64,000 nt of DNA from a virus: UHGV virus genome UHGV-1428848. The stretch is one strand, 5' to 3'. Position 1 is the stretch's first letter. The number at the start of each line of letters is the position of its first letter. The position numbers and the translations under genes were made by a program. This document shows, piece by piece, positions 365-43,302 of the stretch. The notes beneath the pieces were generated by a model. That model was not told the origin of the DNA. It worked only from the letters and a program-made list of their open reading frames with translations, and made no database searches.

Positions 365-690
365 TTAAACCATCCTTTAATACGCTGCCACAAAGTTTTC
401 TGTTGAGCTTTGTTAACACCAATTGAACGAATAACCGGTTGAGATTCCTGGAATTCTTTATAATCGGCAAGGTAAATTTCGTAAGCTGCATCTGTAAAGG
501 AACTTATCGCTGCCATAAAATTATTGCGAATACCTACTGGAGCATCTTTACTTTCACGAATAATCATGTATTTACCAGTCTTAATCTTTACAATAGTTCC
601 AAGATAAGCTCCATGGTACCAAATATCCCAACCCTCTTGAGTAGGTTCTGCACAACGACGAAGTTCATTGACAATTTCTAACTTGTTCAT
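361..690 (-). CDS. hypothetical protein (109 aa)
   Basis: ORF track; immediately downstream of motA; stop overlaps next start. Confidence 0.5.
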
Positions 691-7094: not shown

Positions 7095-9272
7095 TTAGGC
7101 CGCAAGGGCCTTCATAGTTTTAGCGATTTGGGAAACTTCATCATCACTCAAAGAGTTGCGATAACCGATGAAGTCGGAAACAATACGGAATTTCTTGGTA
7201 AACTCAGCAACCATTTTATCACTGTTTTTTGAAGCATTATTTGATAATACATCAAAAAGATTAGTTACCGTCCAGATGTCATGACCGATGGTATCTTTTC
7301 CACCATTAAAATATACACCGCGCAATGAACTAACTATATTAGCGAGTCGTGTATATTCTTCAGAAACTTCATCTGTACTGAAGTACTTCATCATAAAATC
7401 TAGTTCAGGATACTTGATAATTTTATCAATATATCGTTGAGCTGAACTTGAATAACCTACATACTTATCATAATCTACATCATCAAAAGCATCTACATAT
7501 AAATCACGCAAAGCTTCAAAAATACATTGGCACTGACCAAGCTCTTTTACCTTTTTCTGCAAAAGCGGACGAATAACATAAAATTCATTAATGCCAATAA
7601 GATTAGCCATACGAATCAAAATATTCATAGATGGATGACAAAGCGATGTAGTACCATCCATAGAGAAAATATCAGAACGATGCATATACGCTACATAACC
7701 AGTAATTTCATCTGCTTCTGACGTAAGTGTAAATAATTCCTCTTTTTCCCAACGCCCATCTTTAATTTCAAACTTAAATGCTGTAGCAGCTTTAGGACGA
7801 GGAGCTTTACTTTTAACTACCTTTGGAATATAGCTTTTAACTAAAGCTTCAATTTCTGACAAATAATGAATGTTAACTTCATCACTTTCAAACATCGCCA
7901 TAATATCAGGAAGTAAATCAATCTGCGATTCTACTTCTGGATTAATAAACAAAAGGCGTTCGTTATGATGAATATTCAAAGTGTTATTAAATTCACTATC
8001 ATCTAACGCATGTGCTAATCCACGGACAATATTAACACGATTTTTAATATTATCAATAACGATATTAATTTTTGCTGTATTAATACCAAACAGACGATAA
8101 CTTGATGCAACGGCTGAAGTTTCATGGCTTTGCTTAATGCGTTTCAGTCGAGGGTCAAGATTTACTTCATACACAACTCCTGCATTGCATAACTTACTGT
8201 CAGGTTCAAACATGCTCTGCATTTTCTTATATGACAGATTTTTAGTCGTGAATTTGACTGAATTACTAATCATATAATCTCGAGCAGAATACCCCATCTT
8301 CATCAATTCACGATATGTATGACGGGGAGATGTAGATTCTTTAAATCGTTTTACATCTTCATTAAATGCTTGCTCACTGAGTTCTTTAACTCGCTCAATA
8401 ATATTTTTACGAGTACGATCATCAAGTGAAAGAGCCTCGCGAGATGGAGCAATATCAAGTGAACCCATTGGAAACTTAATGTAATTCACTTCATTGCGAA
8501 TGCTTAACCAGTTACGGTCTCTAATAACACCATCGATAGGATAAACAATACCGCCATAGATAGCATATAATCCACCACGATCAGGCCAGTATCTTTCTGG
8601 ATTTACACCATAATAATCATCAAAATCAGGAAAATAATCAATTTCGCGGTCAAGACCATTAATGATAGCCAAATCTTTGAACGGTCGCATGATATAAGAA
8701 ACTTCATAAGCAAAGTTTCTAAAGTCTTTTTCTTCAACTGGAACTACGATTTCAATACCAGTTTTATCATCTGGACCCATTTCTTTTACGAATGTAGGTT
8801 TAATTTGTGGACCATCGCCATCCATGTAAGCTACATAACCACGAATTTCACCTTTATGATACGAAGTAATACTAAATGTATCAGTATAACTAAACGGAGA
8901 TTTAGAACCTAAACCAAATCCGCCAATGAAATCGTTAGATTCAGCCTTAGATGAACTGAAGTATGAATTATACAAACCAGGAGAATTATCATCACCCTGA
9001 ATATCAAAATCACTCATACCCGGACCAAAATCTCGGCAAACAAATCGTGGATCTAAACGTCCAGGAACTTGAATGATAAATTTTTCAGGATTTCCATTGA
9101 GAGCATGGGCATCAATCATGTTGGTAATCAATTCACGAACAACTGCGCGAATTTTGTTTGTATACAAATCAGATGACAGAATTTTAAATACTTTAGGAGA
9201 TGCTGTGATGCTAAATGCTTTTGATTTAGAACCATTGCCAAGAATAGTTTCTTTTTCAGTGGTGATAATCAT
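7095..9272 (-). CDS. rIIA: rIIA protein (GHKL-type ATPase fold)
   Basis: 725 aa, same as T4 rIIA; ATP-binding Bergerat-fold motifs ([18 protein letters not shown]). Confidence 0.85.
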
Positions 9273-22762: not shown

Positions 22763-23280
22763 TAATAACCTCGGTCTTGACGAGCGAAGTTTTCAGCATT
22801 TTTCAGGTAATAAAGTTTAAAGATTTCTTCAGCTGACATTCCAAGAGCAATAAATTTATTCATGAAAAAGTGAAATTGGTCAATCAGTTCAAATTTAATT
22901 TCAAGCTGATCTTCAGGAGATAAATCTTGAATTTTCTTGGATTGCATTTCAGAATAACGTTTCTTCCAAGGTTTCCATACAGCAGAAGCTTCTTTTTCAC
23001 CATTACTCATACCACCAAGAGAAGTATATAGTTCGCGAGTTTCATCTGCGATATAATCGTCTTGGTTTCGCAACCAAGCAAGAACTTCTCCTGCGGTTTC
23101 AAGTGAATCAGGATGACGATTTGTTTCTGGTTTATCATTAGCCAAACGAATCTGTAAATGCCGCTGCATATCAAGCATAACCTGCAGTGGGTCAATATTG
23201 TGCATAATATTCTCAGCATATGCACGATTTGCTTTATCAACACCTTCGATCAAATGAGCACATTCATTAAAGTAAGCCAT
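22762..23280 (-). CDS. 56: dCTP pyrophosphatase (MazG-like dCTPase)
   Basis: 172 aa from ATG at 23280 (MAYFNE...), matching T4 gp56 length; the longer track ORF uses a non-ATG start. Confidence 0.8.
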   Translation of the reverse strand: MAYFNECAHLIEGVDKANRAYAENIMHNIDPLQVMLDMQRHLQIRLANDKPETNRHPDSLETAGEVLAWLRNQDDYIADETRELYTSLGGMSNGEKEASAVWKPWKKRYSEMQSKKIQDLSPEDQLEIKFELIDQFHFFMNKFIALGMSAEEIFKLYYLKNAENFARQDRGY

Positions 23281-27667: not shown

Positions 27668-28030
27668 TTAAAAGAATTTAAACTTTTTCTTTGACCTTTT
27701 ATTAAATGCATCTTGTAGTTGCATTGTAATACATTTTTCTACATGAGGAGCTAACTCAGCTTTTCTTTCTTGGTCAAGAACAGCAAAGTCCATTACAACC
27801 TTTCCATCAACCCAATTTAATTTTGTCACATACACAATGTGTGTAGAACCATCTTCTAGTTTAATGACAATCTCCTGGATAACATTTTCCATGGCAGATT
27901 TAATTATCTTAAGAGATTCATTAAAAAGACGTTCTTTTCTTTCTTCTTCCCCCTCCGAAGAGGGGGATTCATCGATAATTTCTAGATCTAAATCTAAATC
28001 ATCTTTATTCATTAAATTCTTCCATATCAC
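27668..28030 (-). CDS. acidic protein (120 aa), gene 40 position
   Basis: Between uvsX and 41; assignment by synteny only. Confidence 0.4.
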   Translation of the reverse strand: MIWKNLMNKDDLDLDLEIIDESPSSEGEEERKERLFNESLKIIKSAMENVIQEIVIKLEDGSTHIVYVTKLNWVDGKVVMDFAVLDQERKAELAPHVEKCITMQLQDAFNKRSKKKFKFF

Positions 28031-29186
28031 TTAACTGCTCGAGGTCAGTTTCTAAATCAGCTGCTGATTTACTTTTACTTTCTGAGGATTTAAATTTTTC
28101 AACCTTTGAGTTAATTAATTCATCAACTTCCGCTTCAACAATTTCATTACTATCAATAGCACCTAACTGATAAGCACGCTTAATAGCATCTCGGAATGGT
28201 TGATGCTTAAATAAAGGACCCCAGAATGTAGTGCAGTTGGTATCTTTTGCACGCCAAGATTTTTCTTCGCGAATCATCTCGCCGGTTTCTTCATCAAGAA
28301 ATTCACGAGCATACCAACCATTCTTAGGTTTTACTACAAATCCTAATTCAAGAGCCATATCTAGCAATCCAGAATAAGGATCGATACCACCGTCAAATTT
28401 AACATCAATAAAGAATTTACTTTTTTCTTTAACGGTACGAGATTTTTCTACATTTAGAACAAATTGATACCCTTGAAGATCAGAACCATCTTTAATCTGA
28501 CGTTTACCGATAATGAATACGGTATCAGCCGAATACATTACGCCTGTACCACCTGTCATCACGGTTTTACTAAACATTTCAATTGTTTCAATTGTATGGT
28601 TAACCGCAACACATGGAATATTTTTAATGCTAAAGTAAGGAGTAACAATACGGAATAATGACTTCAGTGATTTAGCACGAGTCATATCTGCCACAGATTT
28701 TTCATTCAAGGCATCTTCCGTTTCTTTCTTAGAAGCCATATTACCAATTGAGTCGATGAATACAATAACTTTTTCACCACGCTCAATAGCTTCAAGCTGG
28801 TTCACCATATCAATTTTCAGCTGTTCAACTGACTGGATTGGCGTATGAATTACTCGTTCCGGGTCAACTCCCATGGATCGCAAATAAGCTGGAGTAATAC
28901 CAAATTCGCTATCATAGAATAGACAAACCGCGTCAGGATATTTGTTCAAATACGCCGCAACCATAGTCAAAGACATATTTGATTTAAAGTGTTTAGAAGG
29001 CCCTGCGAAAATAGTTAAACCAGACTGCATACCACCATCAATCGCACCAGAAATAGCAATATTAAGCATTGGAATTTTTGTACGAATTACATCCTTTTCA
29101 TTAAAGAATTTAGATGTAGTCAGTTCAGCAGTCATTTTAGAAGTGGAAGCTTTAATCAAACGGGATTTTAAATCTGCAATAGACAT
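28005..29186 (-). CDS. uvsX: UvsX recombinase (RecA family)
   Basis: 393 aa; RecA-like core with Walker A GPSKHFKS. Confidence 0.9.
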   Translation of the reverse strand: MSIADLKSRLIKASTSKMTAELTTSKFFNEKDVIRTKIPMLNIAISGAIDGGMQSGLTIFAGPSKHFKSNMSLTMVAAYLNKYPDAVCLFYDSEFGITPAYLRSMGVDPERVIHTPIQSVEQLKIDMVNQLEAIERGEKVIVFIDSIGNMASKKETEDALNEKSVADMTRAKSLKSLFRIVTPYFSIKNIPCVAVNHTIETIEMFSKTVMTGGTGVMYSADTVFIIGKRQIKDGSDLQGYQFVLNVEKSRTVKEKSKFFIDVKFDGGIDPYSGLLDMALELGFVVKPKNGWYAREFLDEETGEMIREEKSWRAKDTNCTTFWGPLFKHQPFRDAIKRAYQLGAIDSNEIVEAEVDELINSKVEKFKSSESKSKSAADLETDLEQLSDMEEFNE

Positions 29187-29263
29187 TCATTTTTTCCATA
29201 GGCATCATTATATTTTCCTCACTGGTTAAAGATAGAGTAATTATAACACAATAAATTTAGGCA

Positions 29264-30112
29264 TTAATCAACTGCTATTGGATGAATAGCATTAAACTTA
29301 TGAAATGCTTCTGATTTTTCTTTACGAGAAACACACATGCGAAGAACCTTTAATGGCTCGTCTTCTTCACCCAACGATTTTCGTTTTTCAATATTAGAAG
29401 TTTTCCAACGAGCTTGCTCTGGAAACTCTCTATTGATTTGCTCAAGCGCTCTATTATGTTTAGAATTACTACGAATTGAACTGCACCCGCCAGGAGCTTG
29501 TGCTTTTCCAGATACAACCAGATATTTGAACAAGGCCAAATGCGGATAACCTTGATTAATTAAATTGAGAAATGCATACATATCTTCGCACAAATCAATT
29601 TTTCCATACCCAATTTGTTCTGTCGTAAGTTTTCCAAGGTCATACCATGTATTCGTGAATCCATATGAATTTTCACGATAATTACCCCAAGATGAAGTAA
29701 TTTTAAAAATTGGTAGGCGAACATGACCGTGATAATACCCGCAATCCATGGCATCTTCGACGTATTGAATCAATTCATAGAACTGTTCATGAGTCAATTG
29801 ATTGACTTTATCTACACATCGGCGATCATCTCTTTTTCGCATTGAACTCATACGAATAGTAGTATCATCGTCAATCATCCAGATTCGTTGACCTGCATAC
29901 ATATCAGTAATTGCTTTACGAGTACCGGCAATTCCGTTTACATCATCAGGAATAGTTATAATTTTAGCTCTAGACCCATAAGCATCATAATAAGCTTTTT
30001 CTTCGTGTTCACGCACTACAATATGGGGTTCATAATCAGTCGGAAACATATCAAGGGCAGAAACTGCCCCAACACGCTGATAGCTTGGAATTACGAATTG
30101 AATCATTTCCAC
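29264..30112 (-). CDS. GT-A fold glycosyltransferase (282 aa), candidate DNA glucosyltransferase
   Basis: DxD-type motif IWMIDDDTTI; occupies the slot between uvsX and gene 42 where T4 has the 351-aa beta-gt. Confidence 0.5.
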   Translation of the reverse strand: MEMIQFVIPSYQRVGAVSALDMFPTDYEPHIVVREHEEKAYYDAYGSRAKIITIPDDVNGIAGTRKAITDMYAGQRIWMIDDDTTIRMSSMRKRDDRRCVDKVNQLTHEQFYELIQYVEDAMDCGYYHGHVRLPIFKITSSWGNYRENSYGFTNTWYDLGKLTTEQIGYGKIDLCEDMYAFLNLINQGYPHLALFKYLVVSGKAQAPGGCSSIRSNSKHNRALEQINREFPEQARWKTSNIEKRKSLGEEDEPLKVLRMCVSRKEKSEAFHKFNAIHPIAVD

Positions 30113-30843
30113 TCACCGTTATAGTCTTTTTTCACAATATGAGTTTCGCCAGTATTCCACCAATGATCAACCAAGTAAAAATGACGAGAATATACATGAA
30201 GACTTCCAACATTCCATATAATAGAACCTGCTTTATACTGACGAGTTGAATCGCCTGCATTCAAATCAGATACTAATTTATCTAGTACGTATTTTTGCCA
30301 TGCGTAATCATTACGGAATCCGAAGACCACGTCATTTGAGCGCATGCTTACTACTGCATTGACTTTCTTATCACGAATCAGGTACTGTACTGTATTAGTA
30401 CACATGAAATCTGACATACCGTCTTTATTGTAATCAAATTGCATGGATGGACGAGTATAAATCATGATACCACGTCGAGAATCAGGATTTTGACCAAGTT
30501 CAGCTAAACACATATCATACTGGGCATAGTTATCTTCTGACCAAATAGCCCAACCATAATTCGAGTTAATTTCGCCTTTAGAAGATGCTACCTGCTGCCA
30601 AATCTTTGGTGTTTCACCTGGAATATCTTTAACAAACAGACTTTGAGACTTGTACCATTCAAGTTCACGCTGAATGTATTCATCATTAAGAGCGCCAAAA
30701 ATAAACGGTTCATCTGCTACAAATGATGCGCCAATAATTTCAATAGTTTTAACACCAGTTTTATCAACTACGAAATCTTTTTCTTTTAATGCAAGCCCCA
30801 AATGAAGACGGATTTCTTCAACTGTCATAGAGTCACTAATCAT
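30103..30843 (-). CDS. 42: dCMP hydroxymethylase (thymidylate synthase family)
   Basis: 246 aa as in T4 gp42; ThyA-like fold. Confidence 0.85.
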   Translation of the reverse strand: MISDSMTVEEIRLHLGLALKEKDFVVDKTGVKTIEIIGASFVADEPFIFGALNDEYIQRELEWYKSQSLFVKDIPGETPKIWQQVASSKGEINSNYGWAIWSEDNYAQYDMCLAELGQNPDSRRGIMIYTRPSMQFDYNKDGMSDFMCTNTVQYLIRDKKVNAVVSMRSNDVVFGFRNDYAWQKYVLDKLVSDLNAGDSTRQYKAGSIIWNVGSLHVYSRHFYLVDHWWNTGETHIVKKDYNGEWK

Positions 30844-30847
30844 TTAA

Positions 30848-31000
30848 ACCTCAATTGATACATTCATATTTAACTTGTAACAGTAATAAACCCCAACCTA
30901 AAATAATAGTTGGAATCATAAGAGGAACCGTTACACTATAGTATATACTTATTATAACCATCAAGATTAAAAGCAACACTGTTATAATTTTGCTTTTCAT
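30848..31000 (-). CDS. small membrane peptide (50 aa)
   Basis: Hand-translated MKSKIITVLLLILMVIISIYYSVTVPLMIPTIILGWGLLLLQVKYECIN; ATGA overlap with imm. Confidence 0.35.
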
Positions 31001-31248
31001 TCCTTCTCTCTGATGATAATTACCTGATTTGGTTGTGCAGACTTTTTAGTTTCACCCGCAATTGACCAAATAAATGTAATAAACCAACCAATAATTGACC
31101 AGTTAAACAGTAAAGATGTGAAAAAGATTCCTACTGTCGATTTTGACCCACGCATCAAGGCGATAAACCATGGAAGCATGTATATAATAATAGCCAACAC
31201 ACCTGAAACTAAAACCATAAAAATTGAACCTGCTACTAAAGTTTCCAT
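30997..31248 (-). CDS. imm: Imm, superinfection immunity membrane protein
   Basis: 83 aa as in T4 Imm; two TM helices; position between 42 and 43. Confidence 0.65.
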   Translation of the reverse strand: METLVAGSIFMVLVSGVLAIIIYMLPWFIALMRGSKSTVGIFFTSLLFNWSIIGWFITFIWSIAGETKKSAQPNQVIIIREKE

Positions 31249-40306: not shown

Positions 40307-41322
40307 TGTGTTGCCTCTACATATAACTGATTTGCATATTGAATAAGTGCTTCACGATCAGAATCAGTGATGTCTGGAATTGCATTAATGTATTCTTCCA
40401 TCAACGTCTGAAGAGATTGAACTTCAACTTCTTCACTGTCATCTGACTCGACAGAGTTATCAATCTTTGACACAACTCGTAATGAATGCACAACTTTTTC
40501 TAGTTCAGATTCGAACTTCGTCAGATTTTTGTCTACTTCAGTTACTATAACACGTACTGATAGATTTGTAAAATCTTTATAGTCAATTTTTCCTTTAAAT
40601 GGATAATGAATTCTACGGTGCCAGGTAGTATTGTTTGGAATAAATTCCATTCGTTCTGTTTCTGTATCAAACATCCAGAACCCACGAGAGTCATTCTCGT
40701 CACCTGCAGTTAGTGTCCATGGTGTCCCAATATATCTGACGTTTGCAGCCTCAGAAATAGTATGGAAGTGACCAGACCACACTTCTTTATAAGTCTTAAG
40801 GAAATCGGGTTCAAGACCGTGAGATTTCATTCCTTTATAAAAATAAAATCCATTCAGTTCCCAGTGACCAACACAAAAAGAAGCAGAAGAAGTTTTTATG
40901 TGCTCGAGAATTTCACCAGTATTTTCTTCACACATCCAAGGAATCAAATCAATTAAACATCCGTCAAAATCTACTGTAGTAGGCTTATCATATACTTTAA
41001 CATTAGGATATTTAGCCAAAAGCTCAGTAGAGGCATTTGGATGCATTACATTTTTGTAGTGGAGATCGTGATTTCCTACAATAGTATGTAATGTGATTCC
41101 AGCATCATCAAGCATTTGAACTATTTCACGAGCAAACTCCATAGTTTTATGCGTGATTGCTTTTCGCACATCAAAAATATCACCGTATTGAATCCAGGTA
41201 GTAATTCCATTTTTCTTAGAATATTCTATCGCTTGTTTAATTCCATCAATTTGAATACCGCGAATCCACTCATCATCAGCTTTAACGCCTAAATGCCAAT
41301 CACCCAAGTTTAGTATTTTCAT
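40303..41322 (-). CDS. 47: recombination nuclease subunit (SbcD/Mre11-like phosphoesterase)
   Basis: 339 aa as in T4 gp47; calcineurin-like motifs (DWHLG, GNHD). Confidence 0.9.
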   Translation of the reverse strand: MKILNLGDWHLGVKADDEWIRGIQIDGIKQAIEYSKKNGITTWIQYGDIFDVRKAITHKTMEFAREIVQMLDDAGITLHTIVGNHDLHYKNVMHPNASTELLAKYPNVKVYDKPTTVDFDGCLIDLIPWMCEENTGEILEHIKTSSASFCVGHWELNGFYFYKGMKSHGLEPDFLKTYKEVWSGHFHTISEAANVRYIGTPWTLTAGDENDSRGFWMFDTETERMEFIPNNTTWHRRIHYPFKGKIDYKDFTNLSVRVIVTEVDKNLTKFESELEKVVHSLRVVSKIDNSVESDDSEEVEVQSLQTLMEEYINAIPDITDSDREALIQYANQLYVEATQ

Positions 41323-41923
41323 GGTGTCTTTTCCATCCTAATTTAGCTGCTTTTGAAACCAGTTCTTTAATTTTTCCTTTTGTCCATTCAGGACCAGGAG
41401 GTTCATGACATAACATTTGCTTAACTCCGTTATTATACCATTTTTTACCTTTATTATGTGATGAAGCTTTAAATTTATTTGACCTTCCTTTTACATAACC
41501 TTCTGGAATATAAGGTAAAAATGCAGATTTTCCTGTTAATGGATCATGTGAATGTATATTTCCTTTACAATTATGAGAACCATATAATGGATGATTTTTT
41601 CCTTTAATATCTCTTCCAAATGAACCTTTTGGAGCAGCATATGACATATTAAAGAATAATGGATTTTTAACTGCATCATGCAATCGTTGATAATATAACT
41701 CGCATTTAATAGCTTCTTCACGCGTATCAAATTCAGCTAAAATGCATGAATCAAATAAGTGAGGATTATCTGAAAGCTCTTTATTATAAATTTTCTTATA
41801 CTTTTTAGATAAAACTGAACCATGATATCCAGCTAAATGCCTATCTAAAGACGTAGATCCAATATAAAAAGGAGGAAGTTTATCTCCACTATATATTGTT
41901 AAATAAGTTATATATTTTTTCAT
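41300..41923 (-). CDS. GIY-YIG family homing endonuclease-like protein (207 aa)
   Basis: N-terminal YITYLTIYSGDKLPPFYIGSTS (GIY...YIG), downstream Arg/Glu, basic C-terminal repeats (GKNHPLYGSHN, HNKGKKWYNNG); 3' end overlaps gene 47 start by 23 nt. Confidence 0.55.
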   Translation of the reverse strand: MKKYITYLTIYSGDKLPPFYIGSTSLDRHLAGYHGSVLSKKYKKIYNKELSDNPHLFDSCILAEFDTREEAIKCELYYQRLHDAVKNPLFFNMSYAAPKGSFGRDIKGKNHPLYGSHNCKGNIHSHDPLTGKSAFLPYIPEGYVKGRSNKFKASSHNKGKKWYNNGVKQMLCHEPPGPEWTKGKIKELVSKAAKLGWKRHHENTKLG

Positions 41924-42099: not shown

Positions 42100-43302
42100 T
42101 TATTTTGTAATAATGTCAAACTGTTCTTTAAAGCAGAAGCTTGAATCTTGGTGCTGATACAAAAATTCATATGCTTTTTCTCGCTCACGGTCATAAAGAG
42201 CTCGGTCAGATGACAGTTCTTTAATACGTTCAAATGTTGATTCCATATCATTTTCATCAAACCAAATGATACCGCTATCATGCGAGGTCAAAGGAGTATT
42301 ATCAACACGGAATTTTAAATTTTCGCCAGTAGATTTCCAAAATACCGGAATTGTTCCACATGCACCAAGCTCGAGATGAGTATATTCTAAAGAGCGCTGT
42401 AGATATTTTTTATCCAACTTACTCAACTGATAACCAAAACCGGATTTACTCATACGTTCAAGCATTTCGCTATTTACATAACGGTCAAGAATTTGCGTTG
42501 GCAAATTAGGAGCAATTTTAATTTGGTCTACTTGATGAAGACGATAATACTCGTATGGAATTCCTTTTTCTTTAATAGGAATGAACGCTGGAGAACGTTC
42601 CAGACCTTCCATAATAGTACTTAGTCCTGCAGGTTTAAGATGTTTTTCATGAAAATCAAACATCTGATAAAAACCTTTCCATGTAGTCGTACGACCAATC
42701 CAACGGTTGATATTCATGTTAATTTCAGAAACATCTTTCCAGTAGGTTGATCGAACCTTCGCAATATCCATAGGAGGCTGAAAGTTATATACGGTCGGTG
42801 CTTCTTCAATATCATCAAACAGAGAAACAGTTTCTGGATACCACTCTTTCATCAGAACTTTATTAAAATCACCATTATCAGAATGGCTAAAAATAACATC
42901 AGCTCGACGAACAGTTTCTTCTAATCCCAAATTTCGACGCAAAGAAAGAGAAGAATGGTCATGCTGATAAACTACAACACGAACAGAAGGTTTAATGTTA
43001 TCAATAATTTTTTTATAGTTATTAATAGTGTCTTCTTCAACCGAAGTAGCAGGAACTGAATTGATAATTAGAATATCACAATCATTTACCAGCTTAAGTG
43101 TTTTATCGTATTCTTTTGCCAATAAAACCGGAATTGAAAATGATTTATAATCATGCGCGCAATTACGAGTAAATGATTTATCTTTAGCATAAACCAAAGT
43201 TACTTCATGACCATTTTTAATAAACCAATCACGTTGCTCGAGTGAGAATTTTGTTACACCACAACCTTCAAGACCTCGAGCCATAAAAATACATACTTTC
43301 AT
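42100..43302 (-). CDS. a-gt: DNA alpha-glucosyltransferase
   Basis: 400 aa as in T4 alpha-gt; position between 47 and 55. Confidence 0.7.
   Translation of the reverse strand: MKVCIFMARGLEGCGVTKFSLEQRDWFIKNGHEVTLVYAKDKSFTRNCAHDYKSFSIPVLLAKEYDKTLKLVNDCDILIINSVPATSVEEDTINNYKKIIDNIKPSVRVVVYQHDHSSLSLRRNLGLEETVRRADVIFSHSDNGDFNKVLMKEWYPETVSLFDDIEEAPTVYNFQPPMDIAKVRSTYWKDVSEINMNINRWIGRTTTWKGFYQMFDFHEKHLKPAGLSTIMEGLERSPAFIPIKEKGIPYEYYRLHQVDQIKIAPNLPTQILDRYVNSEMLERMSKSGFGYQLSKLDKKYLQRSLEYTHLELGACGTIPVFWKSTGENLKFRVDNTPLTSHDSGIIWFDENDMESTFERIKELSSDRALYDREREKAYEFLYQHQDSSFCFKEQFDIITK

Follow-up and report, generated by a model that had tools for sequence, protein, structure and literature searches.

Evidence for a T2/T6-type ba-gt (TAGT family) between uvsX and gene 42 of a Tequatrovirus genome

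The gene lying between uvsX and gene 42 in the 64-kb stretch of DNA analyzed here (the window) is very probably a ba-gt of the T2/T6 type (beta-glucosyl-HMC-alpha-glucosyltransferase, Pfam family TAGT; 29264..30106, minus strand, 280 aa plus stop), carried by a Tequatrovirus genome whose closest relatives are T-even phages of the BASEL collection; we put the probability of this reading at roughly 0.93. The encoded protein is identical to T2 ba-gt at 276 of 280 residues and to T6 ba-gt at equally many (98.6% each). It matches PHROG 842, "beta-glucosyl-HMC-alpha-glucosyltransferase" (E = 2.1e-89), and scores 38.9 bits against Pfam PF20691 (TAGT, TET-associated glycosyltransferase; curated gathering cut-off, 27.5 bits), covering profile positions 2 to 205 of 205. 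At the nucleotide level, the full-length gene recurs at 90% identity or above in 475 phage records (megablast), most of them annotated with the same enzyme name and nearly all belonging to T-even-like phages of Escherichia, Shigella, Yersinia, Salmonella, and Citrobacter. In the window, T2 (MH751506), T6 (MH550421, NC_054907), and MLF4 alike, the genes run uvsX, ba-gt, 42, imm, and the surrounding 25 kb of the window shares 97 to 98% identity with Tequatrovirus phages of the BASEL collection, AndreasVesalius among them. The likeness to the ba-gt of T2 and T6 ("ggt," 280 aa, PHROG 842) takes in protein length, genomic slot, the ATGA coupling to gene 42, and the accompanying alpha-gt, gp42, and gp56.

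The present analysis shows identity, synteny, the completeness of the pathway, the GT-A fold, and conservation of the DDD motif; for donor, acceptor, linkage, and defense phenotype we rely on published work on the T2 and T6 enzymes, to which the window protein is 98.6% identical. By orthology, the window protein would use UDP-glucose to add a beta-1,6-linked glucose to alpha-glucosyl-hmC in DNA. Published work already covers the gene and what it makes, the fold of the enzyme, the synteny with T4 beta-gt, and the counter-defense role, and the assignment is of value for annotation only: it places this phage with the common alpha-gt plus ba-gt type (T2, T6) and not with the rare alpha-gt plus beta-gt type of T4.

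The open reading frame is uninterrupted on the minus strand from 30112 to 29264 and would encode 282 aa from a GTG at 30112, the length given, with no strand, in the initial annotation. The intact frame stands, and its recurrence in 475 phage records goes well beyond chance, but the length is better given as 280 aa. Two codons past the GTG, an ATG at 30106 forms an ATGA overlap with the TGA stop of gene 42, and the MLF4, T2, and T6 orthologues (843-nt CDSs, 280 aa) are annotated from the corresponding ATG. The ATG at 30106 is the likely start, with 282 aa representing a mechanical maximum. Such ATGA stop/start overlaps are the usual arrangement in translational coupling and, judging from this junction, gene 42 and ba-gt are translationally coupled.

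Both neighbors named in the initial annotation were recovered with Pfam and PHROGs. Downstream, uvsX (28005..29186, minus strand; Pfam T4_UVSX_C, E = 4.6e-39, and PHROG 97; Pfam T4_UVSX_C/RecA) borders the slot at a spacing of 77 nt (29187..29263) and lies outside the modification pathway. Upstream, gene 42 (30103..30843, minus strand) encodes a dCMP hydroxymethylase of the thymidylate-synthase type (Pfam Thymidylat_synt, E = 1.3e-15; PHROG 160, E = 4.9e-67) and is annotated as dCMP hydroxymethylase in MLF4, T2, T4, and T6. A promoter and terminator scan of 28900..31100, which excludes T4 middle and late promoters, returned 11 promoter-like sites where 9.8 were expected and 1 terminator-like site where 0.9 was expected, an uninformative outcome. 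Between imm and gene 42 there is also a 49-aa, strongly hydrophobic ORF (MKSKIITVLLLILMVIISIYY...; 30851..31000, minus strand) with a start that overlaps the stop of imm. In T4, T2, T6, and MLF4 this ORF is intact and 88 to 96% conserved, but it has been left unannotated in all four records.

The same slot in T4 holds a different enzyme. The T4 interval between uvsX and gene 42 contains segA, a GIY-YIG homing endonuclease gene, together with the 351-aa beta-gt, whereas the window, T2, and T6 have no segA there. BLASTP between the window protein and T4 beta-gt gave chance-level matches only (lowest E, 0.28, spanning 10 residues), and tblastn with T4 beta-gt across all 64 kb of the window found no homologue (lowest E, 1.4). 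These searches, along with the fold search described below, bear out the earlier view that the gene is not the 351-aa GT-B beta-gt of T4. The two enzymes are alike in slot, in UDP-glucose as donor, in the beta linkage, and in their role in glucosylating hmC DNA, but T4 beta-gt (PDB 1JG7 as cited in PMC13216743) is a GT-B enzyme acting on bare hmC, whereas the window protein has a GT-A fold and ba-gt of the T2/T6 type acts on alpha-glucosyl-hmC. A TAGT in the position syntenic with T4 beta-gt, with a GT-A fold, has been described previously (PMC13216743, PMC13390438). In the phage collection, T4-type beta-gt is found in only 29 records at the megablast level compared with the 475 for ba-gt, and the window therefore represents the common configuration and T4 the exception. 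Within the phage GT-A family defined by PF20691, to which the window protein belongs by its above-cut-off match over the full profile and by structural neighbors that include TAGT-domain proteins, the present case differs in lacking a TET/JBP dioxygenase partner: gp42 would produce hmC as a nucleotide, and the enzyme would act on the sugar that hmC already carries, not on hmC itself.

The DxD-type motif IWMIDDDTTI noted in the initial annotation is present at residues 75 to 84 (280-aa numbering; 29855..29884), with the DDD itself at residues 79 to 81 (29864..29872, minus strand). A homologue search returned 11 proteins, and in an alignment of the window protein with eight of these (9 sequences; 32 to 77% identity) D79, D80, and D81 are invariant. 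We predict that the DDD holds a divalent metal and the diphosphate of UDP, and the invariant D175 (of an E174-D175 pair) could act as the catalytic base. A search of PDB sequences for a family member gave chance matches only (E = 1.5 to 2), with no solved structure for the family. An AlphaFold2 model built from the 9-sequence alignment is of moderate confidence (mean pLDDT, 72.5; pTM, 0.75), with poorly defined loops (pLDDT < 50) at residues 131 to 138 and 192 to 211, but suffices to assign the fold without ambiguity. It forms a single Rossmann-like alpha/beta/alpha nucleotide-diphospho-sugar transferase domain, and the DDD begins where the strand at residues 74 to 79 ends, as the DxD does after the fourth beta-strand in GT-A enzymes.

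Fold searches with this model retrieved GT-A enzymes, including mannosylglycerate synthase, GalNAc-T1, GnT-I, TarP, TarS, SpsA, and chondroitin and hyaluronan synthases, as well as same-fold sugar nucleotidyltransferases; GT-B enzymes were absent from the matches, in agreement with the fold class first proposed from the motif. Against predicted viral structures (BFVD), the top Foldseek match was a Klebsiella phage ba-gt (E = 1.8e-34), and lower matches were TAGT-domain or GT2-like glycosyltransferases by name, with several unnamed. Published AF3 modeling likewise makes the T6 enzyme GT-A, sister to GT2 (PMC13216743). Inverting GT-A enzymes of the GT2 type (BcsA, TarP/TarS, SpsA, mannosylglycerate synthase, and others) share 7 to 16% identity with the window protein in structural alignments; they differ from it in that its acceptor would be borne on DNA and in that its C-terminal ~70 residues have no counterpart in these matches.

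The window carries a complete hmC pathway, comprising gene 56, gene 42, alpha-gt, and ba-gt. Gene 56, encoding dCTPase/dUTPase, was located at 22765..23280 on the minus strand by tblastn with T6 gp56 (98.3% identity over 172 aa, E = 1e-116). The alpha-gt, encoding DNA alpha-glucosyltransferase, lies at 42100..43302 on the minus strand, where the initial annotation had placed it, and is supported by both Pfam (PF11440 AGT, E = 1.8e-237) and PHROGs (PHROG 2888, E = 7e-223). It is a T2-type allele, 99.5% identical to that of T2 and 91.8% to that of T6; as ba-gt is equidistant from T2 and T6, the glucosylation genes are mosaic relative to the classical phages. Together, gp56 and gp42 would exchange the dCTP pool for hydroxymethyl-dCTP, with gp56 clearing dCTP such that only hmC is incorporated, and the phage polymerase would place hmC in the DNA. 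The alpha-gt would then use host UDP-glucose to place an alpha-linked glucose on hmC, and ba-gt, as a single-domain GT-A enzyme with its DDD, would draw on UDP-glucose again to join a second glucose to the first at its 6-OH. Anomeric inversion by ba-gt would make this a beta-1,6 bond and the product gentiobiosyl-hmC; with UDP-alpha-glucose as donor, formation of a beta bond implies inversion, the typical mechanism of GT2-like GT-A enzymes.

This scheme follows what is known of T2 and T6, in which gentiobiosyl-hmC is the product of ba-gt, the second glucose being added in beta-1,6 linkage after alpha-gt has acted (PMC6024577, PMC13216743). Natural Tequatrovirus isolates with alpha-gt and TAGT contain 5-hmdC and its alpha-glucosyl and alpha-gentiobiosyl nucleosides by HPLC/MS (PMC13390438). 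Given a 98.6%-identical ba-gt in the T2/T6 slot and an alpha-gt that would make its acceptor, a capacity for gentiobiosyl-hmC, raised in the initial annotation as a T2/T6-like pattern, is the right inference, and the DNA of this phage should carry alpha-glucosyl-hmC and gentiobiosyl-hmC without beta-glucosyl-hmC. The type of modification bears on attack by type IV restriction enzymes and DNA glycosylases (GmrSD/BrxU, Brig1) and on cutting in vitro. Deletion of ba-gt from T6 leaves only alpha-glucosyl-hmC and raises sensitivity to the Brig1 glycosylase (PMC11078745), which documents the link to modification-dependent defense that had been proposed for this gene. The bulkier disaccharide would mask alpha-glucosyl-hmC from defenses that recognize it, such as Brig1.

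How much gentiobiosyl-hmC the phage makes is a separate matter. T2 and T6, whose enzymes share ~98% identity, have gentiobiosyl-hmC fractions of 5% and 72%, respectively (PMC6024577), and a 14-fold difference between near-identical enzymes means that the level of diglucosylation is not readable from the gene. Gene content predicts that the phage produces gentiobiosyl-hmC, in an amount that may resemble that of either T2 or T6. The window ba-gt differs from that of T2 at four positions (R11H, H106R, V129A, and P251S, window residue first) and from that of T6 MH550421 also at four (Q10*, Y40N, D55G, and V129A), and it has the consensus residue at every position where T2 and T6 differ from it except V129. 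Alanine occupies this position (codon at 29720..29722) in T2, in T6, in MLF4, and in the seven nearest homologues from the database (P0001 to P0007). A scan of IMG/VR for the codon context of V129 gave only two exact matches, both with alanine, a sample too small to speak to the rarity of V129. The window protein keeps the arginine at position 11, a residue that does not vary among homologues as distant as 32% identity.

The most substantial alternative concerns phenotype and not gene identity: the ba-gt orthologue may contribute little, leaving DNA like that of T2, mostly alpha-monoglucosyl-hmC with ~5% gentiobiosyl-hmC and ~25% bare hmC, so that hypermodification would be marginal. The T2-type allele of alpha-gt points in this direction, as do the low gentiobiosyl-hmC content of T2 despite an intact ba-gt (PMC6024577) and the A129V substitution, which falls in the conserved HGH-A-RLP stretch. 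Against it, T2 has H11 where the window has R11, and the low level in T2 may be a defect particular to that phage; moreover, the gentiobiosyl nucleoside is detectable in natural isolates carrying alpha-gt and TAGT (PMC13390438). On balance we consider such a marginal contribution a serious possibility, if a somewhat doubtful one. Use of another sugar or acceptor, whether hmC directly or the beta-glucosyl-hmC proposed for TAGT homologues that accompany beta-gt, is very improbable. Many phages do have TAGT homologues with beta-gt or alone, and specificity is not uniform across the family (PMC13216743), but the window protein is 98.6% identical to the biochemically and genetically characterized T2 and T6 enzymes, and the window contains alpha-gt while beta-gt was not found. 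Slighter still is the chance that the ORF is an inactive remnant, whether as a pseudogene or through damage to the allele in a laboratory stock: lesions are known in public T6 records (an amber codon 10 in one, a missing Asp of the DDD in another), but here the ORF is full length with a coupled ATG, the DDD is intact, and all columns invariant among the homologues are kept. With the ORF and every invariant residue intact, we rejected the pseudogene reading for the window gene.

The public records of the classical phages show peculiarities of their own at this locus. All eight public T2 records, which are identical in ba-gt, carry R11H (codon 11 in MH751506, at about 8096..8098). In T6 MH550421, a TAG amber occupies ba-gt codon 10 (7951..7953) and the CDS is annotated from a downstream Met, and in T6 NC_054907/AP018814, one Asp of the DDD is absent (WMI-DDTTI; at about 532..537 of the retrieved NC_054907 locus). 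Both public T6 lineages have a lesion in ba-gt, which is odd for a phage reported to contain 72% gentiobiosyl-hmC. The sequences hint that ba-gt activity may differ between laboratory stocks and natural alleles. A speculative extension, which we regard as unlikely, is that allelic variation in ba-gt, and not its presence or absence, sets the ratio of mono- to diglucosylated hmC, in which case R11H of T2 could explain the difference between 5% and 72%. If that were true, the window phage (R11, intact DDD, apart from A129V, and with a T2-type alpha-gt) would be of the high-diglucosylation kind, and sensitivity to Brig1-like defenses would be predictable from sequence.

A further ORF lies near the alpha-gt. 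At 41300..41923 on the minus strand, inserted between gene 47 and alpha-gt where the T2 and T6 loci have no counterpart, a homing-endonuclease-like ORF of 207 aa has a 23-nt overlap with the start of gene 47. The ORF matches PHROG 10820 (E = 2.6e-94) and scores 21.4 bits against Pfam GIY-YIG, just under the cut-off.
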